Positions 459 through 9,475 of a stretch of 64,000 nucleotides of DNA are shown here, piece after piece. Under the pieces are notes generated by a model, which saw only the letters and a program-made list of their open reading frames with translations, was not told where the DNA came from and ran no database searches. Position 1 is the first letter of the stretch. Each line of letters begins with the position of its first letter. The translations under genes and the position numbers were made by a program. Source of the DNA: Vulcanimicrobiota bacterium (lineage in GTDB: Bacteria; Vulcanimicrobiota; Xenobia; Xenobiales; JADMJV01); the NCBI GenBank assembly GCA_050250895.1, contig JBFWNU010000002.1:599659-663658 (forward strand), in the 5' to 3' direction.

Positions 459-1079
459 CTATCGTCTGACTGCCTCCGGGTCGAGAATGCCGCTGAGTAA
501 GTCGGCCAGGATAGCCCGCAGCTCGCGCTCGAGGTCGCGCGAAAGGTCGCCCAGACCGTCGACGAGCTTGTCGCGGACCACCCGCAGGGTGGTGTCGCGC
601 AGGTCGTTGAAGTCGCGGATCTCGCTGGGCTTTTGCTCGACGAAGCGTTGGTAATAGACGCTCTGACCGCTCTTGAGCCGCCCATAGACCTGTTCGGTGC
701 TTTTGGCTTTGACCCGAATCGGCAAGAAGGGGTGGTCGACTTCGAAGTGGCCACCGTCGGAATCGGCGATGGTTTGCAGGGTCTCGAGGTAGCGAACGGC
801 TCGCTGCTCGGCTCGGGTAGTGGGAGCGGGTACGGTGGGCTCGGGCGGATTGGTGATGGCGATGGTGCCGATGACTCCTACCGCCAGGCCGAGTCCGACC
901 AACAGCGCGGTCTTGCCCAGGCCGCGCGAACGGGTAGGGGCAGCCGCCGCGAGCGGCAGTTCGAGGCTCGGCTCGAAGCTCTCGACGGGAGGGGCTTGAG
1001 GTTTGGCGGCCGGAGGGGCCGAGCGAGCTAGAGGGCGTGAGAATGTCAGGCGGGGACCGATGGTCTGAAGCTGGGCCAT
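459..1079 (-). CDS. hypothetical protein with a Pro/Ala-rich N-terminal leader and one TM segment
   Basis: 206-aa ORF; hydrophobic stretch ALLVGLGLAVGVIGTIAI; GGAAGG upstream. Confidence 0.65.
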   Translation of the reverse strand: MAQLQTIGPRLTFSRPLARSAPPAAKPQAPPVESFEPSLELPLAAAAPTRSRGLGKTALLVGLGLAVGVIGTIAITNPPEPTVPAPTTRAEQRAVRYLETLQTIADSDGGHFEVDHPFLPIRVKAKSTEQVYGRLKSGQSVYYQRFVEQKPSEIRDFNDLRDTTLRVVRDKLVDGLGDLSRDLERELRAILADLLSGILDPEAVRR

Positions 1080-1146
1080 AGGAACCTTCCAATCCGGAGT
1101 TGTTCCCAGACTAGTGGGCCGGCCTCAGCTAGAGATTTCAGGAAAG

Positions 1147-1542
1147 TTAAATTGTCTCCCAGGCGGCAGCGGCGTCGAGAGCCCCTAACAGAGCGAAGGC
1201 GCGGGCCGCTTTGAGTGCCTCTTCGCGATTGACGATGGCCTTGGCCGGGCAATTCTTGGGCTGGCCAGCCATGATGATCTGATCGTCGCCCTCGATTTCG
1301 GGATGGACCATGGCCACAAAGTCGCCCCAGTCGAAAGTGGCCTGGACAGTGTAGCGGCCGTTAGCTCCGCCACCGATGGCCATGTAACTGTGCTCGGGGG
1401 TATCGAGGGTGAGGAGGGTATGTTCGTGGCCGTCAAGTCGGGTGATGGCGTCGACGATTTCGGGCCAGTCTGGGCTGAGAGTGGATCGGCTCCAGTGCTT
1501 GGATCCTTCTCGCTCGCTTTCGGTCAGAGTCGTGATGACCAC
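1147..1542 (-). CDS. Imm1-family immunity protein
   Basis: LDG..TLLTL..MAIGGG.GRY pattern and a C-terminal A..AA..F...G.L....W, resembling Imm1. Confidence 0.6.
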   Translation of the reverse strand: MVITTLTESEREGSKHWSRSTLSPDWPEIVDAITRLDGHEHTLLTLDTPEHSYMAIGGGANGRYTVQATFDWGDFVAMVHPEIEGDDQIIMAGQPKNCPAKAIVNREEALKAARAFALLGALDAAAAWETI

Positions 1543-1647
1543 CTGGACCTCCTAGAATAAACTAGTTCTATTTTACAGTATCGCTGAGAGGGTGTCAAAG
1601 GACATTCGTACCATGGCGGGGCGAACGTTTTTTCGTTCTTCGGGAGG

Positions 1648-1659
1648 GAACGCATGTTC
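1648..1659. promoter_or_regulatory. putative LexA (Cheo-type) box GAACGCATGTTC
   Basis: GAAC-N4-GTTC with an RNRY spacer, 39 nt upstream of the mreB start. Confidence 0.4.
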
Positions 1660-1698
1660 TTGAATTAAATTCCAGACGATGGGACAGGGAGGGAATTT

Positions 1699-2664
1699 AT
1701 GCGATTGGGACTTGACCTGGGTACCACCGTGGTGCGTGTGGCCAGGGACAAAAAAGGTGTAATTCTCCAAGAGGCGAGCGTCATCGCTGACGATCCGACT
1801 CTGCCGGAGGTCTATACTGTGGGCAATGAGGCCCGAGCGATGGAGGGGCGGACCCCCGACCACGTCAGGGCGCTCAGGCCCCTGCAGGCCGGATGTGTGG
1901 CCGCCCCGCTGGCTGCCCGTGAAATGCTGCGTCTGCTGCTGGGCCGCGCCCTGGGTTGGCGTAAGAAACTCAAGCCTTTTGTGCGCGTGGCCGTGCCGGT
2001 CACCGTGACCAGGTTTGAGCAAGAGGCCCTGGTCGAGGCCCTGACCTACGCCGGGGCCGGCAAGGTGGAACCCGTGCCCAAGCCAATTGCAGCTGCCTTC
2101 GGCATCGACGCTGAAGTGGGCGCCCCGCTGGCCGCCATGGTGGTGGATCTGGGTGGGGGCACCAGCGAGGTGGCTGCCATCTCTCCGGGCATCGTCGTCT
2201 GTGATGCCATCGGCGTGGGAGGGGTCGACCTGGATCGGGCCATCACGGCGCACCTGCGCATCGCTCACGGTCTCGAGATCTCCCCCGAGATGGCCGAAAA
2301 GATCAAGCTTGGCGTAGGCTCCGCCTGGCCCGGCGAGGGTCCTGAGACCTTCCAGGCGGCCGGCCGCGAATTACGCACGCTGTTGCCGCTGCGGGTCGAG
2401 GTTACGTCTGTCGAAATCCGGACAGCCATGCAGGCTCCCCTGGAGCGCATCTTCGACCTGGTTCGTCGCACCCTGGATCGGACTCCCCCGTCCCTGTCTG
2501 AGGATGTGCTGCGGCGCGGAGTGGTGCTCACGGGGGGCGGCGCTCAGTTGCGGGGAATGGCCCGCTTTCTCAGCGAGCGACTGGGACTGGAAGTGAAGAT
2601 CGCTCCCGACCCCACCGGGTGTGTGGCCCGGGGACTATTGCTGGCCCGTCTGGGCATCAACTAA
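1699..2664 (+). CDS. mreB: rod shape-determining protein MreB-like (divergent)
   Basis: GLDLGT, VVDLGGGTSEV, AEKIK and LTGGGAQL actin-fold motifs; first gene of the mre/mrd operon. Confidence 0.85.
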   Translation: MRLGLDLGTTVVRVARDKKGVILQEASVIADDPTLPEVYTVGNEARAMEGRTPDHVRALRPLQAGCVAAPLAAREMLRLLLGRALGWRKKLKPFVRVAVPVTVTRFEQEALVEALTYAGAGKVEPVPKPIAAAFGIDAEVGAPLAAMVVDLGGGTSEVAAISPGIVVCDAIGVGGVDLDRAITAHLRIAHGLEISPEMAEKIKLGVGSAWPGEGPETFQAAGRELRTLLPLRVEVTSVEIRTAMQAPLERIFDLVRRTLDRTPPSLSEDVLRRGVVLTGGGAQLRGMARFLSERLGLEVKIAPDPTGCVARGLLLARLGIN

Positions 2665-2673
2665 GGAGGACGC

Positions 2674-4536
2674 ATGCTGTATACCGAGAGCATGGAGGGG
2701 CCCTCGCCGTTGTTGGCCGAGAAGCCCAAGCAAAACGCCACTCTGGGAGATTCCCTGGCCAATCGCGTAGCCCGTCCTCGCGTGGACGTGGGGGTGTGTC
2801 TGGGTACTTCTCAGGTGCGCCTGACGGTGGGCACCCGCGAAGTCGCCTCGCCCAGTTGCGTGGCCGTCGACTCGGCCAAAGGCAAGGTGCTGGCCCTGGG
2901 CGAGAAGGCTTTTCAGATGGAAGGGCGCGAGCCTCAGGGCGTTTCGATCGTGCGCCCCCTACGTCACGGCGTGGTGGTCGACTATGAGCGGGCTCGCAGC
3001 CTGCTCGGCTCGGCGCTGGAAGCGTCTAAGCACGGCGTGCTGTTTGGCCCGCGGGTGGCGGTGGCCGTGGCCGCCGACCTCTCCAGCGTGGAGTTGAAGG
3101 CTCTCGAGTCGACCGTCCGTGGGGCCGGCGCCCGCGAGGTCTATCTGGTCGACAAAGTGTTGGCTTGCGCGGCCGGAGTGGGTGAAGACGTGCTGGCCCC
3201 CCGCGCTCGGTTGGTGATTCAGTTGGGGGCGGGCACCACCCAGATGGGTGTGATTTCTTTGGGCAATCCGGTCGAATCCAGAGTGATGCGCCGGGGCGGC
3301 CATTCGATGAATGAACTGATCGCCGAACACGTGCGCCGCCAGCACCAGATTCGCATCGACGAGCACACGGCCGATCGCATCAAATGCCAGTTGGGATGTG
3401 CGCTGCCCCTGGCCGAAGAACGCACCCTCGAGATTTCGGGCCGCGGCACCCAGGACGGAAAGCCGGTTTCGGTTACCCTCAATTCGACCGAGGTGGGCCG
3501 GGTCATCCAGCCCGTGCTCGACGCTATCGCCGAAGAAGTGCGGGCGCTGGTGGCCAGCATGTCGTGCCAGTTGCTCACCGACGTGATGGAGGATGGAGCC
3601 ATCTTGACCGGCGGCGGTTCGATGCTACGCCGCCTGGACGAGTTCCTGGAACAAGAGACCCGGTTGCGTTTTCGCCTGCCCACCGGCCACGACCAGGCGG
3701 CCGCCTATGGCATGCGGCGCCTGCTCAACGACCGGCTGCTGCGCCAGCGGGTGTTGGCCCCCAAAGGGCGCGGGGTCGCAAGCCAACCGGGCCGCCCTCG
3801 CAACTGGCTGGTGGCCTCCCTGCTGCTCTCCACCTCGCTGTTGGTGACGGTGACTTTCGCCCGTGATATGCAGATGGGCGGGGGAGGGCTCGACGGCATC
3901 ATGAACACGGTCTTGCAGCCCGCTTACTCAGCGGCCGCACCCGAGCAGAACTGGGACATGACCGAGCGCCTGATGCTCGACGAGAAGGACCGTCGCCTCG
4001 AATCGCTGCGCCAGGAGAACCAGCGCCTGCGAGCGTTGTTGGGCACTCCGGACGGCAGGGTTCCCGAGGGCGCTCGAGTGGCTACGGTGCTGGCTCGCGA
4101 CCCTAAGGGATGGTTGAGCTTCATGCGGCTTGACCTGGGTCGCAAGCACGGCGTCAAGGTCGGCCAGGTGGTCTCCGACGGCAAGAGCCTGGTGGGTAAG
4201 GTCGACTCGGTCAGCGACGAGAGTTGCCGCGTGCGTCTGTTCGTCGATCAGTCCTCGGTGGTAGCCGGCAAAGTGCGCGACACGGCCGGAGTGGTGGTGG
4301 GAAGCACCGACCGCCAGGTTCGGATGCGTTACCTCGACCCCGACGCCCGGGTCAAACCCGGTGACAAGGTCTATACCTCGGGGCTGGACGGCGAATACCC
4401 GAAGGGATTGCTGGTGGGTCGCGTGGTGCGGGTCGACCGGCTCGAGGACGCCAATTTTCAAACGGTGACCGTCGAGCCGACCGCCGACTTCGATCGCTTG
4501 TTTGAAGTCTTGATTCTGGGAGCGCAGGGCTCTTGA
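2674..4536 (+). CDS. mreC: MreB-like/MreC fusion protein
   Basis: N-terminal ~350 aa actin-like (RPLRHGVV.DY, LTGGGSML), one TM helix, coiled coil (LRQENQRLRALL), then MreC beta domain (DLG..HGVKVG, LVGKV, VYTSGLDG.YPKGL.VG); one uninterrupted ORF. Confidence 0.85.
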   Translation: MLYTESMEGPSPLLAEKPKQNATLGDSLANRVARPRVDVGVCLGTSQVRLTVGTREVASPSCVAVDSAKGKVLALGEKAFQMEGREPQGVSIVRPLRHGVVVDYERARSLLGSALEASKHGVLFGPRVAVAVAADLSSVELKALESTVRGAGAREVYLVDKVLACAAGVGEDVLAPRARLVIQLGAGTTQMGVISLGNPVESRVMRRGGHSMNELIAEHVRRQHQIRIDEHTADRIKCQLGCALPLAEERTLEISGRGTQDGKPVSVTLNSTEVGRVIQPVLDAIAEEVRALVASMSCQLLTDVMEDGAILTGGGSMLRRLDEFLEQETRLRFRLPTGHDQAAAYGMRRLLNDRLLRQRVLAPKGRGVASQPGRPRNWLVASLLLSTSLLVTVTFARDMQMGGGGLDGIMNTVLQPAYSAAAPEQNWDMTERLMLDEKDRRLESLRQENQRLRALLGTPDGRVPEGARVATVLARDPKGWLSFMRLDLGRKHGVKVGQVVSDGKSLVGKVDSVSDESCRVRLFVDQSSVVAGKVRDTAGVVVGSTDRQVRMRYLDPDARVKPGDKVYTSGLDGEYPKGLLVGRVVRVDRLEDANFQTVTVEPTADFDRLFEVLILGAQGS

Positions 4537-4979
4537 TCGGCTGGCTCGGGACGGCGGTCCTGATACTGCTGGCCACGGTGCTGCAGAGCACGCACCTGCA
4601 TGGCCTGGGACCAGGCGGGACCACCCCGGACCTGGTTCTTTTGATCGTGCTGGCCGCCGGCCGCCACGGCGGCGAAACGGCCGGCAGTTGGGCCGGCTTT
4701 TGGGGTGGCCTGCTGATCGGGGCCGTGCGTGGGGGTCTGGAAGGGCCGATGGCGGTGCTCTACGTGCTGGCCGGCTGGCTGGCCGGCGCCCATCAAGAGT
4801 CAAGCCTCTTCGAGATGGTGCTGGTCGGTTGTCTGGCCACCGTCTTGATGGTGCTGGGCGAAACGGCCATCATCGCCTTTCTGGGCCTGGCCGGCTCGCT
4901 GACTCTGGCGGGGGTGGTCGGGTTGGCTCTGTTGCACGGGCTTTGTCTGGCCCCCCTGGCGGTGCGGAGCGAAAACTAG
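4533..4979 (+). CDS. mreD: rod shape-determining protein MreD-like membrane protein
   Basis: multi-TM protein with PDLVL and GF.GGLL motifs; lies between mreC and mrdA. Confidence 0.7.
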   Translation: MIGWLGTAVLILLATVLQSTHLHGLGPGGTTPDLVLLIVLAAGRHGGETAGSWAGFWGGLLIGAVRGGLEGPMAVLYVLAGWLAGAHQESSLFEMVLVGCLATVLMVLGETAIIAFLGLAGSLTLAGVVGLALLHGLCLAPLAVRSEN

Positions 4980-6794
4980 GTGGAAGACGAACCGATTCGA
5001 TTGCCTTCGAGCGGTCGCTTTCGGCTTCGATTGGCGGCCATGCTTGGCACCGTGCTGGTGACGATGCTGGCCGCTCGACTTCACCAACTGCAGGTGCTCG
5101 AGCACGAGCTTTATCAGAAGAAGGCCGACCGCAACACCGTCGCCGTCGAACTGGTCTCGCCTCCTCGCGGACGCATCTACGATCACAGCGGCCGGGTGCT
5201 GGTCAGTAACCAGCCACGCTTTGTGGTTAACTGCGTGCCCGCCGAGCTAAAAGACCGCCAGGCCGTCTGCCAGGCTCTGGGCCAGGCCCTGGGCAAGCCG
5301 GCCAGGCCGCTTTTCGACAAAGTTTGCCAGGCCTATCACGAGGCTCCGCTAGAAAGACTGGAACTCGAGACCCGCCTCGACCAGGCCCAGTTGGTGAGGG
5401 TCACGGCTCTGGCTCGGGCCACCCGAGGTCTCTTCGTCGAGTCCCAGTCCATTCGCCGTTACCCGTTTGGCCAGAGGGCCTCGCACCTGTTGGGCACCGT
5501 GGGCGAGATCGACGCCGACGAACTCAAGGAACTGCAAGGCCAGGGCTACCGCGCCCGGGACATCATTGGGAAACGCGGGCTGGAAAAACAGTATGACCGC
5601 TATCTCAAGGGCCACCGCGGAGTGCGCCACCTCAACATCGACGTGCTGGGCCGGACGATTCGCGAGTCGCAAGAGCGCCGTCCCATCATCGGCTGTGACC
5701 TGCATTTGAGCCTGGATTTTGAACTGCAGGGCGTAGCTGAAGCCGCGCTGGCCGAGAAACTGGCCGAACTCAAGCAACTCAATGGTGAAGATTCGGCCGG
5801 AGCGGTGGTGGCCCTCGAGGCTCAGACGGGGCGGGTGCTAGCCCTGGCCAGTCTGCCCCAGTTCGACCCCCGGCCCTTCGCGCGAGGCATCGAGCCCAAA
5901 GAATACAACCGGCTGCTGGCAGACCCCAACTATCCCCTGCTCAGCCGCGCCTTCGGCTCGGCCTTTTCGCCGGGCTCGACCTTCAAGTTGGTCACCAGCA
6001 GCGCCGCTCTGCAGCAAAAGCTCTGCACCGGGGGCTCGGTGTTCTACTGCGGGGGCAGCTATCTCGGGGCCAGTTGCTTCGTGCGCTCGGGCCACGGCAG
6101 TATCAACTTCGAGGATTCGATCGCCCATTCGTGCGATGTGGTCTACTACCGCCTGGGGGCAGAGATGGGCATCGGCAACCTGCGCAAATTCTGTGCTCTC
6201 TATGGCCTGGGTGCTCCCACCGGCATCGACCTGCCCGGCGAAGACGGTGGCCTCTTGCCCAGTCCGGCCTGGAAAGAGAAGTGGGTGGGCGACGAGTGGT
6301 ATGTCGGCGACACCGTCAACATGTCCATCGGACAGGGATTTCTGCTGGTCACGCCCCTTCAAATGGCGGTGGTCACGGCGGCCGTAGCTAACGGCGGTAA
6401 GGTGGTCGAGCCCCACCTGGTCGACCAGATCGTCGATGCCAGCGGGCGGGTCGTCTACCAACACGAGAGCAAGCCCGTTCGCAAACTGCCCATCGATCCG
6501 AAGTATCTTCAGTCGGTTCGTAACGGGATGCGGGGTGCGGTGGCCTATGGAACCTCGGTGGCCGCCGATTCGCCCCTGGCCAGGGTGGGGGGCAAGACGG
6601 GCACGGTCGAAAACTCGCCCAGCGTCTCTAACCACCACGGGCGCAACCACACCTGGTTCGTGTCGTTTGCACCCATCGACAAGCCGCAAATCGTGGTGGT
6701 GGCTTTTCTCGAGAAGTCTGGCGGTTACGGCGGCGGCAATGCCGCCCCGGTGGTGCGCAAGGTGATTGACCACTATTTTGGAGCCCCGCGATGA
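4980..6794 (+). CDS. mrdA: penicillin-binding protein 2
   Basis: PRGRIYD, PGSTFK (SxxK), SCD (SxD) and KTGT motifs; N-terminal TM. Confidence 0.93.
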   Translation: MEDEPIRLPSSGRFRLRLAAMLGTVLVTMLAARLHQLQVLEHELYQKKADRNTVAVELVSPPRGRIYDHSGRVLVSNQPRFVVNCVPAELKDRQAVCQALGQALGKPARPLFDKVCQAYHEAPLERLELETRLDQAQLVRVTALARATRGLFVESQSIRRYPFGQRASHLLGTVGEIDADELKELQGQGYRARDIIGKRGLEKQYDRYLKGHRGVRHLNIDVLGRTIRESQERRPIIGCDLHLSLDFELQGVAEAALAEKLAELKQLNGEDSAGAVVALEAQTGRVLALASLPQFDPRPFARGIEPKEYNRLLADPNYPLLSRAFGSAFSPGSTFKLVTSSAALQQKLCTGGSVFYCGGSYLGASCFVRSGHGSINFEDSIAHSCDVVYYRLGAEMGIGNLRKFCALYGLGAPTGIDLPGEDGGLLPSPAWKEKWVGDEWYVGDTVNMSIGQGFLLVTPLQMAVVTAAVANGGKVVEPHLVDQIVDASGRVVYQHESKPVRKLPIDPKYLQSVRNGMRGAVAYGTSVAADSPLARVGGKTGTVENSPSVSNHHGRNHTWFVSFAPIDKPQIVVVAFLEKSGGYGGGNAAPVVRKVIDHYFGAPR

Positions 6795-7912
6795 AAAGAC
6801 GACTGCTGCCGGTGCTGCTGTGCCAGGACTATCCCCTTTACACCTGCGCCCTGGGGGTGAGCGCCCTGGGTTGGCTGGCGCTGGTGTCGGCCACGCGCTG
6901 GACGGGGGCCGAGGCCGAGCCCAGTCGGCAGGGCCTCTTTCTCTTCATCGGCTGGACCCTGGCCTGGCTGTTGGGCTGCTTGGATTATGACTGGCTACGG
7001 AAGTTGAGCCTTCCCGCCTATCTGGTATGTCTGGGCTCACTGGTAGCCGTGATGGTGCCCGGCATCGGGCAGAGCGCCAAGGGAGCCCAACGCTGGATCG
7101 CCCTGGGCCCCCTGGGCGCCGTTCAGCCTTCCGAGTTCGCCAAGCTGGTCGTGGTCATCGTATTGGCTGCCCTGCTAGCCTGGCGCTCTGACCAGGAGGG
7201 CAAGCCGGCTGCTTCTCTCAAGACTCTGATACTCACCTTTATCGCCATGGGCATACCCTTCGTGCTCATCGCGGCTCAGCCCGATCTTGGCACTGCTCTA
7301 GTCCTGGTGGCCGTCTGCCTGGTCATGGTCTTCGTGGCCGGAGCTTCCCCGGTGGTGCTGGGGGCCTTGATCGCTTCTGGGATAGCCGCCCTGCCCCATG
7401 TGCTCAAGGAATACCAGAAGGACCGGCTAATGATCTATCGCCACCCTGAGCACGATCCGATGGGAATGGGCTACAGCCTGGTCCAGTCGAAAACGGCGAT
7501 CGGATCCGGGGGCATCTTCGGCAAAGGCTTGTTTGCCGGGCACATGACCCAACATGGGTTCGTGCCCGAGAACTGGACCGACTTCATCTTCACCGTGCTG
7601 GGCGAAGAGCTGGGGTTGATCGGCTGTCTCGGCTTTCTAGCTCTGTTCGCCATGCTGCTGATCTGCACCATCCGGGCCGCGCATCTGGCCCACGACCTTT
7701 TCGGCGCGCTGCTGTGCACGGGAGTAGCCACTTTGCTGGCCTTTCAACTGGTGGTCAACGTGGCCATGACCATCGGGTTGGCTCCGGTGGTAGGTCTGCC
7801 GCTGCCGCTGGCGAGCTACGGGGGTAGCGCGCTTTTGACCAACCTTTGTGCGGTAGGAGTGGTGGCTTCGGTGACGGCCACCTCGCGCCGGCGGCAAACG
7901 GCAGAGGAATAG
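6791..7912 (+). CDS. rodA: SEDS glycosyltransferase RodA
   Basis: GAQRWI, QPSEFAK, QPDLGT, PE..TDFIF and SYGGS motifs; follows mrdA. Confidence 0.93.
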   Translation: MKRRLLPVLLCQDYPLYTCALGVSALGWLALVSATRWTGAEAEPSRQGLFLFIGWTLAWLLGCLDYDWLRKLSLPAYLVCLGSLVAVMVPGIGQSAKGAQRWIALGPLGAVQPSEFAKLVVVIVLAALLAWRSDQEGKPAASLKTLILTFIAMGIPFVLIAAQPDLGTALVLVAVCLVMVFVAGASPVVLGALIASGIAALPHVLKEYQKDRLMIYRHPEHDPMGMGYSLVQSKTAIGSGGIFGKGLFAGHMTQHGFVPENWTDFIFTVLGEELGLIGCLGFLALFAMLLICTIRAAHLAHDLFGALLCTGVATLLAFQLVVNVAMTIGLAPVVGLPLPLASYGGSALLTNLCAVGVVASVTATSRRRQTAEE

Positions 7913-7938
7913 CGGGTGGCAAGGTATAACGAGCGCCC

Positions 7939-8682
7939 ATGCGCCGACTGTTCATTCTTCTCCTATTGTTGCTCGCCCCCGCCTGGTCCCAGACCATCCA
8001 CGAGGCCGTCCGAGACGACGACATCAAGGCCGTCACCGAGATGCTCGAGACTCACCCCGACCTGGTCAAGCTTGCTCAGGATGGAGTCAGTCCGCTGCAT
8101 GTGGCCTGCTTTCACGGCCACGCCGCCATGGCCAATCTCTTGCTCGAGAAGGGAGCCGACCTCGAGGCTGTCGACCGCCTGGGCGCCTCGCCCCTGATTC
8201 GGGCTCTGGCCGAGGGTCACTCGACCCTGGCCGTGGCCCTCATCGAGCGGGGAGCCAACGTCAACCGGGCCACCAAACTCGGCGAGACCCCGTTGATGAT
8301 GGCCGCTCGCGAGGGCAATCGGGCCGCCATCGACGCCCTGCTGGCCAAAGGAGCCCAACTCGAGGCTGTTGATGGTCGCAAACGGACGCCCTTACACCAT
8401 GCCGTAGAAGCCGCCAACATGGCGAACATCCAGCGATTACTCGAGGCCGGGGCTAATCTCGAGGCTCTCGACAAGAACGGCCAGTCGGTGCTGCACAAGG
8501 CCTCGTTCATGAGCCAGTCCGAAATCGTGCTGACCTTGCTTCGGGCTGGTGCCAACCGTGAACTGCGTGACTCCCGTGGTCGCACCCCTCAGCGCATCGC
8601 CCTCGAGCGCCGCGACCCTGATCTGGCCCGTCTACTCGAGCCCGGCGCGCCCATTCCTGAAACGAAACCGCAACATCCTTAA
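7939..8682 (+). CDS. secreted ankyrin-repeat protein
   Basis: Sec signal (MRRLFILLLLLLAPAWS) followed by several G.TPL..A ankyrin repeats. Confidence 0.9.
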   Translation: MRRLFILLLLLLAPAWSQTIHEAVRDDDIKAVTEMLETHPDLVKLAQDGVSPLHVACFHGHAAMANLLLEKGADLEAVDRLGASPLIRALAEGHSTLAVALIERGANVNRATKLGETPLMMAAREGNRAAIDALLAKGAQLEAVDGRKRTPLHHAVEAANMANIQRLLEAGANLEALDKNGQSVLHKASFMSQSEIVLTLLRAGANRELRDSRGRTPQRIALERRDPDLARLLEPGAPIPETKPQHP

Positions 8683-8788
8683 CATCGGTAACAAACTGTT
8701 AGCCACTCGGTCGCTAGATGGTCGCTCGCGATCGGTGAGTCTAGAAGCAAGACTATACTATCTTGCGAGGTGCGCGGTGAATTTCGGA

Positions 8789-9475
8789 ATGAATTTTCAG
8801 CTCGGCCTGGGAGTGCCCCAGGCCGGTTATTCAGGCTACTCATGCGGTGGTGGCCAAAACCCCCTGACCGGACTCTTCCAACTCATTCTGGGCCTGATGA
8901 TGGGCCTGCTCGGGGGCGATGTCTGCTCGAACCTGCTGGGTGGTGATTCGCGAGGCCACTGCTTTAGCCCCAACAATCCGAGCTTCGGTACCGGCTTCAA
9001 CCCCGGTCGATCCTTTGGCGCCCCTCTGGGGGGCTTTCTGGGCGCCCCCAACGGCGGCGACACCTTCTCGGCCGGAAATGCTCCTTCGGTCGACCTCGGC
9101 TCGATTCAGGGCGGAACACCCTGGGGGCGCTCGCTGGCCTCCGACGCCGCCCGCAACGCCAACGGACCGGGCGGCTGGTGCTACAAATGGGTAGCCAATG
9201 CCCTGGGCCGCCACGGCGTCAATGTGCACGGAGCCAGTGCCTACATGGCCGCCGACCAGCTGGCCGGCAATCCCAAGTTTCGCGAAGTACGGGTCCCGGC
9301 CAACCAGTTGCGCAACCTGCCTCCCGGTGCGGTCGTGGTCTGGAATCGCGGCGCCGGTCACCCCCACGGCCACATCTCGATCGCTTTAGGCGACGGCCGC
9401 GAGGCCAGCGACAAGATTCGCAATCAAATCACCAACTACGGTACCTCCTTCCGAGTCTTTCTGCCGAACCAATGA
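8789..9475 (+). CDS. Gly-rich N-terminus plus C-terminal CHAP/NlpC-P60-like amidase domain
   Basis: GWCYKWV (Cys), GAVVVW and HGHISI (His) motifs; start taken at ATG 8789 because the longer ORF overlaps the ankyrin gene. Confidence 0.65.
   Translation: MNFQLGLGVPQAGYSGYSCGGGQNPLTGLFQLILGLMMGLLGGDVCSNLLGGDSRGHCFSPNNPSFGTGFNPGRSFGAPLGGFLGAPNGGDTFSAGNAPSVDLGSIQGGTPWGRSLASDAARNANGPGGWCYKWVANALGRHGVNVHGASAYMAADQLAGNPKFREVRVPANQLRNLPPGAVVVWNRGAGHPHGHISIALGDGREASDKIRNQITNYGTSFRVFLPNQ

Follow-up and report, generated by a model that had tools for sequence, protein, structure and literature searches.

The window analysed here is a stretch of 64,000 nucleotides from the genome of a Vulcanimicrobiota bacterium (GenBank assembly GCA_050250895.1, contig JBFWNU010000002.1, positions 599,659 to 663,658 of the forward strand), and the coordinates given below count from its first letter. 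It carries a cell elongation operon whose second gene, at 2674..4536, joins a MreB-like actin domain in frame to a complete MreC. This open reading frame (ORF) is a genuine, selectively maintained gene fusion and, to judge from the literature searched, represents a previously undescribed variant of the known MreB/MreC system. Its actin domain has the MreB fold, lacks both of the aspartates that bind magnesium in ordinary MreB proteins, and is encoded directly downstream of a free mreB. Our preferred reading, to which we assign a probability of about 0.55, is that a membrane-anchored pseudo-MreB docks or seeds filaments of the free MreB onto MreC-PBP2, in a manner of working similar to that of RodZ.

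The fused gene and its product

An earlier note on this DNA, made from the letters alone, had described a single 620-codon ORF encoding an actin-like domain, a basic linker, one transmembrane helix, a coiled coil and the MreC beta domain, and Pfam searches, AlphaFold2 modelling and translation all agree with that description. The features of the gene are the following.

2663..2669, forward strand: Shine-Dalgarno sequence AAGGAGG of the fused gene, 4 nucleotides before the ATG and overlapping the TAA of the free mreB
2674..4536, forward strand: fused mreB'::mreC gene, 620 codons from ATG to TGA, a single frame without internal stop
2674..2715, forward strand: conserved N-terminal motif MLYTESME..SPLL (residues 1-14), disordered in the model
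2785..3732, forward strand: MreB-like actin-fold domain (residues 38-353) with a degenerate nucleotide site
3757..3804, forward strand: basic disordered linker (residues 362-377), 16 residues with a net charge of +4
3805..3861, forward strand: predicted single transmembrane helix (residues 378-396), WLVASLLLSTSLLVTVTFA, Kyte-Doolittle mean 1.92
3889..4041, forward strand: two predicted periplasmic helices (residues 406-421 and 427-456)
4087..4518, forward strand: MreC beta-barrel core domain (residues 472-615), PF04085, modelled with a predicted local distance difference test score (pLDDT) of 81-92

The Pfam scan of the protein found only actin-type and MreC families. The PF06723 (MreB_Mbl) profile scores 251.8 bits against a cut-off of 27 over residues 38-353, covering profile positions 3-321 of 327, and PF04085 (MreC) scores 135.5 bits against a cut-off of 28 over residues 472-615, covering positions 1-146 of 147. 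The MreC part also reaches the TIGR00219 mreC equivalog (108 bits, cut-off 92.75), and the MreC chains 2j5u, 7eft, 6zlv and 9dvb of the PDB match the fused protein at 4e-18 to 4e-8. The actin domain stays below the NCBIfam MreB cut-offs (NF010539, 250.3 against 293; TIGR00904, 223.6 against 365.75). The protein is therefore a member of MreB_Mbl and of MreC by score and by fold, but fails the catalytic-residue criterion for MreB, as described below, and the stricter NCBIfam thresholds. It is not a member of the RodZ family, since neither a helix-turn-helix domain nor RodZ_C is recognized in it.

An AlphaFold2 model built on an alignment of 15 fused proteins has a mean pLDDT of 79.2, with both domains at about 85-93. 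In this model residues 365-377 are disordered and are followed by helices at 377-394 and 396-399 (the hydrophobic stretch), 406-421 and 427-456, and by a confident beta domain at 468-614. Helix 427-456 is the counterpart of the MreC coiled-coil segment, and the NCBIfam MreC models align from residue 387-435 onward. When the actin part was compared with solved structures using Foldseek, the Caulobacter crescentus MreB chain 4czj_B was matched with a template modelling (TM) score of 0.93 and a root-mean-square deviation of 1.9 Å, and 1jcf with a TM score of 0.91. In the model the fused actin domain is an intact MreB fold. The product is predicted to be a bitopic inner-membrane protein, with the actin module and the basic linker inside, one transmembrane helix, and a complete MreC outside; the +4 linker, the hydrophobic 19-mer and the modelled helices thus bear out the view of the earlier note that such a fusion is topologically coherent.

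The actin core is preceded by a conserved extension of 37 residues. In the alignment of fused proteins E8 of the N-terminal motif is invariant and M1 and T4 are nearly so; the motif is modelled at a pLDDT of 29-34, lies outside the interface modelled with the free MreB, and is probably a short docking motif for some partner. The second-copy fusions found in one genus (g3, see below) are without MLYTESME. An amphipathic N-terminal membrane helix of the Gram-negative MreB type was considered for the region before the core and rejected: for the 16 residues preceding the core, not one of 16 fused proteins had a hydrophobic moment above that of shuffled sequences, and the lowest count was 45 of 500 shuffles.

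Direct reading of the junction (3640-3820) revealed neither a GGAG-type Shine-Dalgarno sequence nor a well-placed internal start, though the operon uses strong ribosome-binding sites; together with the uninterrupted translation this upholds the earlier statement that the junction lacks a stop and an obvious internal ribosome-binding site. In relatives the linker measures 14-24 residues with a net charge of 0 to +6, is always in frame, and is followed by a hydrophobic helix.

Conservation of the fusion

A protein word-index search yielded 16 clusters with both Pfam domains in one protein among 178 matches, at 40-92% identity. Fourteen related species-representative loci were examined. The fused frame is complete in 13 of them (590-642 amino acids), while the fourteenth is cut by a contig start, yet runs from the C-terminus of MreB into MreC. 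All of the complete loci, 13 of the 14, have a free mreB immediately upstream, and the fusion is followed by mreD (12/14), pbp2 (13/14) and rodA (11/14), most of the misses being contig ends.

A profile of the fusion was also run against a sample of 201 genomes from the GTDB phylum of the window; the tally includes two genomes flagged as unpublished (G127 and G177), neither of which has the fusion. In 21 of the 201 genomes a match runs through both domains without a stop, and these genomes are confined to three families: 16/16 in the family of the window, 4/5 in family f3 and 1/1 in family f5, where the match is cut by a contig end. Among 1.84 billion cluster representatives HMMER found 22 full-length and 4 partial fused representatives. 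A search for the combined MreB_Mbl and MreC architecture across genomes, which the earlier note had recommended, thus recovers it, and the claim of a natural fusion is sustained by the loci, the phylum survey and the full-length representatives alike. Identity among the fused relatives reaches down to about 35-40%.

In none of the relatives examined was a stop or frameshift seen at the junction, the finding that according to the earlier note would have spoken for separate genes. The frame is kept in every one of them despite changes in linker length of 14-24 residues, which excludes chance or sequencing error, and its conservation across loci, sampled genomes and representatives, with linkers always in frame, indicates that the fusion is real, old and under selection. 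To the idea that a lost stop or a frameshift in assembly or sequencing joined two ordinary genes we give practically no weight; independent assemblies, stemming from many studies, share this fusion at 35-92% identity and with differing linker lengths, always in frame, and its conservation refutes an artefact. In the public sequence data four wastewater-metagenome contig runs from two studies, and no RNA, contain 5-6% of the sampled words of the window; over 2400-4800 the metagenome pieces fall in scattered bins, and none bridges 3700-3800.

Two apparent irregularities were dismissed. An inner TGA flagged in genomes G068 and G074 is the terminal stop, the fused ORFs being intact at 621 and 619 amino acids, and the triple-length frames of 914 amino acids in loci L018 and L020 are stop-to-stop frames which cross the free mreB in another frame and are not larger fusions. 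As side observations, three genomes of family f4 in the same class (G040, G102 and G108), which are 61-100% complete, did not match the MreB-MreC profile at all at an E value of 1e-20, and this family may be without the Rod system altogether. Other odd MreB architectures, none of them with MreC, were met among the representatives: P0141 (1010 amino acids) has two tandem MreB domains after an N-terminal part of about 330 residues, and P0145 and P0146 (about 490 amino acids) have one and a half MreB domains. Five loci carry assembly titles from elsewhere (L011, L014, L017, L021 and L015; four "uncultured Burkholderiales" and one "Selenomonadaceae"); their operons branch among records of Vulcanimicrobiota, Candidatus Xenobia or Eremiobacteraeota, and the titles are probably wrong labels.

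A search of the full-text literature yielded no description of a natural MreB-MreC fusion, the matches for "MreC fusion" being apparently fluorescent-protein tags. In the databases the fused proteins are annotated plainly as "MreB" or "MreC".

A degenerate nucleotide site

The catalytic positions were read by alignment to Thermotoga maritima MreB (1jce). The fused protein of the window has C42 at the phosphate-1 Asp, Q183 at the phosphate-2 Asp, and Q190 at the Glu after GGGTT, which is the acidic residue of the T-X-[D/E] motif, and it keeps the catalytic Glu (E140), T188 and the GGG adenosine motif. Both Mg-binding Asp are missing in all 32 rows of fused proteins, some of which are the same protein counted as a locus and as a database entry, as against 104 of 104 MreB proteins of other phyla in which they are kept. 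The phosphate-2 Asp is mostly replaced by His in the fused rows. Among the wider fused representatives, 18 rows can be aligned at the first Asp, and one of them, P0138, retains it; the second Asp survives in 10 of 22, and P0138 has both. This pattern indicates that the site decayed after the fusion had arisen, and furthest in the subclade of the window.

From these residues we infer that the fused domain would be a poor or dead ATPase, a "pseudo-MreB". According to PMC9597168, the E...T-X-[D/E] motif is important for the release of inorganic phosphate (Pi); Spiroplasma MreB3, which is without that motif, releases Pi very slowly and still forms filaments, and in SpeMreB5 a change of the acidic residue slowed Pi release at least 5.6-fold.

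The free upstream MreB proteins of 16 related loci are not all canonical either (for example L012 4985-5998, L017 3933-5141 and L020 5920-6951). In 8 of 16 the catalytic Glu is replaced by Q, H, V or A, in 5 of 16 the phosphate-2 Asp has given way to E, G or V, and GGG often reads GAE or GAS; all positions are kept only in the free MreB of the window itself.

Modelled contact with the free MreB

A complex of the free MreB (13 sequences aligned) with residues 1-362 of the fused protein (15 aligned) was modelled in three runs. All three gave a complex score of 0.83, compared with 0.00 for the best of 3 controls; this mark is reached by 116 of 157 solved complexes and by 2 of 215 mismatched pairs, counts which apply only roughly because our own alignments were used. 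The runs share at least 60% of their contacts, and the pLDDT of the partner is 84. Residues 32-56, 193-198 and 221-232 of the free MreB are placed on residues 176-200, 290-306 and 329-331 of the fused protein, which we take to be the longitudinal protofilament contact, IB/IIB on IIA/IA. Conservation of the two filament faces is 0.70 and 0.71 against a domain mean of 0.66, values that 299 and 285 out of 2000 randomly drawn residue sets attain as well. Conservation on one face only, which would have separated a cap from an internal subunit, was not seen, the faces not being told apart by 0.70 and 0.71. The face residues GREP and GR..GKP are invariant in the alignment of fused proteins.

Origin of the fused domain

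In a careful tree of 51 MreB domains all 17 fused domains form one clade (92/93), with long branches, which is nested with the separate, mreC-adjacent MreB proteins of the same phylum (98/98). The free upstream MreB proteins form a clade of their own (99/99) together with a fourth MreB paralogue of the window's genome. This placement identifies the resident mreB, normally found ahead of mreC, as the ancestor of the fused domain, and the free upstream mreB as a distinct, older paralogue and not a recent tandem copy. When the wider representatives were added, 31 of 33 fused domains fell in one clade (Shimodaira-Hasegawa-like approximate likelihood ratio test, 99), the other two, P0138 and P0139, standing apart from it on an unresolved fork. 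These trees give the fusion a single origin, or two at the most, in the mreC-adjacent mreB resident in the lineage.

The operon and a second operon in the same genome

The order of the operon is free mreB, fusion, mreD, pbp2 and rodA. The genes around the fusion are the following.

1699..2664, forward strand: free mreB, 321 amino acids, PF06723 at 292.4 bits, without N-terminal extension
4533..4979, forward strand: mreD, 148 amino acids, TIGR03426 at 45.3 bits against 34.85, its TTG start overlapping the stop of the fused gene
4980..6794, forward strand: pbp2 (mrdA), 604 amino acids, TIGR03423 at 582.1 bits against 455, with the Pfam domains PBP_dimer and Transpeptidase
6791..7912, forward strand: rodA, 373 amino acids, TIGR02210 at 363.8 bits against 336.7
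7939..8682, forward strand: ankyrin-repeat gene, 247 amino acids, 26 nucleotides after rodA

The free MreB that the earlier note had placed upstream of the fusion is thus present, with the canonical motifs DLGT and DLGGGTSE and all four catalytic positions kept. No homologue of the ankyrin-repeat gene was seen within the flanks fetched for the related loci. A scan of 1000-9000 for promoters and terminators gave counts at the level of shuffled sequence and no terminator-like site that would convincingly split the operon.

A second, unfused elongation operon, which the earlier note did not cover, lies on another contig of the same genome (L010; G000 contig C6, 134-3399). It consists of mreB (345 amino acids) and mreC (249 amino acids), which overlap by ATGA, followed by mreD (138 amino acids) and pbp2. 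The fourth MreB paralogue, very divergent and 317 amino acids long, is found on contig C1 (L002, 1498-2451), so that the 9.5-Mb genome holds in total four MreB-type domains and two MreC. Genome G058 of family f3 has the same arrangement, with a second operon of separate genes, and in f2, a family of small genomes in the same order, mreB and mreC occur only in the separate form. In two genomes of genus g3 there is a second complete fused operon (G110, L027 454-4800; G096, L028 2-4247) comprising a free mreB, a fused mreB'::mreC of 631 or 602 amino acids, mreD and pbp2, and both halves of these second operons branch inside the respective fused and free clades.

RodZ

The window's genome, 99.64% complete, gave no match to the RodZ_C domain (PF13464). 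Within the phylum sample the domain was found in 131 of the 132 genomes of families f15, f20 and f21, and none of the 68 genomes sampled from families f1-f14 and f16-f19 showed it, with or without the fusion. Since RodZ_C is missing far beyond the carriers of the fusion, a replacement of RodZ is to be taken as a functional analogy only. According to bioRxiv 10.64898/2026.01.05.697639, MreB is the cytoplasmic contact of RodZ and MreC its periplasmic one.

Proposed role and alternatives

On our preferred reading the fused domain would still offer the normal filament contact faces, and the tethered pseudo-MreB would bind the free MreB filament through ordinary filament contacts, as a fixed subunit, a seed or an end-piece. 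The filament would thereby be tied covalently to MreC and, through MreC, to PBP2-RodA. The fused domain would act as an anchor, seed or end-piece rather than as a subunit that turns over, and the protein would function like RodZ, with a cytoplasmic MreB binder, a transmembrane helix and a periplasmic link to MreC/PBP2. The earlier note had proposed that the anchored actin module could nucleate or co-polymerise with the free MreB. Part of this is retained, a filament-type contact being modelled, but the module is not an ordinary MreB: with both Asp missing in 32/32 rows and the NCBIfam cut-offs missed, ordinary co-polymerisation as an ATP-turning subunit is unlikely, and we favour an anchor, seed or cap with poor ATPase activity. 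The coupling of the filament to PBP2 activation, suggested in the same place, is something that we infer only.

Several points weigh against this reading. Degeneracy of the site is not a condition of fusion, as the phosphate-2 Asp is kept in 10 of the 22 wider representatives and P0138 has both; the loss of ATPase activity would follow from the residues replaced, while E140 and the GGG adenosine motif are kept. The success of the complex model may be a memory of solved MreB filaments and shows likeness, not binding, and neither of the two filament faces in the model stands out by its conservation from the remainder of the domain. RodZ_C is absent not only from fusion carriers, as the 19 sampled genomes of family f2 with separate mreB and mreC are also without it, and the Pfam RodZ_C model matched only 5 of 14 control genomes. 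The presence of the unfused second operon means that the fused operon need not be the main elongasome. Finally, the product of about 67 kDa is predicted from the gene alone.

We hold as possible, and tentatively, that the protein is a bacterial actin-related nucleator. MreC dimerises in the periplasm, and such a dimer would present two ATPase-dead MreB-like domains as one rung of the antiparallel double filament; this two-fold symmetric pair, side by side on the membrane, would seed filaments of free MreB and stay attached to them. The filaments of free MreB, which is without an N-terminal membrane helix, would then be born on one MreC-PBP2-RodA synthase and mechanically locked to it. That the fused module is instead a fully competent, ATP-turning MreB subunit, nucleating or co-polymerising with free MreB and merely anchored in the membrane, appears unlikely to us. 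The intact fold, the retained E140 and GGG, the modelled contact (0.83 against 0.00 for the best control) and the Asp residues surviving in distant representatives would suit it, but both Mg-binding Asp are replaced throughout the window's clade and in none of the 104 ordinary MreB proteins, Q190 occupies the T-X-[D/E] position at which, according to PMC9597168, a change in SpeMreB5 cost at least 5.6-fold in Pi release, and the MreB cut-offs are missed (250.3 against 293; 223.6 against 365.75).

We likewise doubt that the MreB-derived domain has left filaments and become a cytoplasmic regulatory or scaffold domain of MreC, binding for example precursor-synthesis enzymes, loops of MreD or RodA, or a small ligand, with the free MreB proteins acting independently. 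The degenerate nucleotide site and the long branches of the fused clade fit such a change of role, as do the conserved, disordered MLYTESME motif outside the modelled MreB contact and filament faces that are not specially conserved. Against it stand the free mreB found directly upstream in 13 of 14 related loci, the fourteenth being cut by its contig, and again in the duplicated operons of G110 and G096, as well as a complex model that passes its controls and the invariance of GREP and GR..GKP. Quite improbable, in our view, is a fusion that serves only to co-produce two proteins, with cleavage of the linker or an internal MreC start yielding a separate MreB' and MreC. The linker is disordered and variable at 365-377, and the genes of the sister operon merely overlap by ATGA, so that a one-base change separates both states. 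However, no Shine-Dalgarno-like sequence or well-placed start is present in 3640-3820, no cleavage motif is known to us, and the frame has been kept through many linker insertions and deletions in all relatives, which co-expression alone does not need.

Comparison with known systems

The fused protein shares with canonical MreB (T. maritima 1jce/1jcf, C. crescentus 4czj) and its separate MreC the fold, the Pfam family and the partners mreD, pbp2 and rodA. Its MreC part is complete and reaches the equivalog cut-off, and its modelled contact with the free MreB is of the protofilament type. It differs in that the actin domain is joined covalently to MreC through the linker and MreC's own transmembrane helix, in the loss of both phosphate-loop Asp, in falling below the NCBIfam cut-offs and in its 37-residue N-terminal extension. 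The operon differs from canonical mreBCD-mrdAB operons in having a second, free MreB of a different clade upstream of the fusion.

With RodZ (MreB-RodZ complex 2wus) the fusion would have in common a cytoplasmic module expected to bind MreB, one transmembrane segment, and a periplasmic part acting on MreC/PBP2. The two contacts reported for RodZ, with MreB inside and MreC outside, would be hard-wired by the fusion. The two are unrelated in sequence and fold, the fusion having an actin fold and not a helix-turn-helix domain, and a periplasmic part which is MreC itself.

Spiroplasma MreB3 (7e1c/7e1g) offers a parallel, being, according to PMC9597168, a MreB paralogue with a partly lost catalytic centre beside catalytically normal paralogues. 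It is found among both the sequence and the fold matches of the fused actin domain. The residues changed are different, MreB3 having D, K and S at E140, T167 and E169 and the fusion having lost the two Asp and E169. MreB3 is also soluble, belongs to a wall-less bacterium that uses it for swimming, and is not fused to MreC; no special relatedness is seen between the two.

In the Arp2/3-type proteins of eukaryotes divergent actin-fold subunits sit in a complex that templates or anchors filaments of the true polymerising actin. Arp2/3 chains are weak fold matches only (TM scores of 0.53-0.61), and with different partners and no specific homology beyond the actin superfamily they may serve as an analogy.

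Significance

How MreB filaments are coupled to the RodA-PBP2 synthase is still debated, the candidates being RodZ, MreC/MreD or direct contacts. Here evolution has made the link covalent and has kept it across a whole uncultured lineage, with the ATPase site of the tethered copy degenerate and a free, normal MreB retained alongside. The fused proteins are named simply "MreB" or "MreC", and the present analysis flags this as an annotation problem. The fusion gives a handle on whether a permanently attached MreB-like subunit can organise elongation and which MreB faces are needed for it, and on what replaces RodZ where it is absent. If the tethered domains do act as a nucleator, the fusion would represent a RodZ-independent coupling of the cytoskeleton to wall synthesis, and would provide a natural experiment on whether MreB must exchange freely with the synthase.

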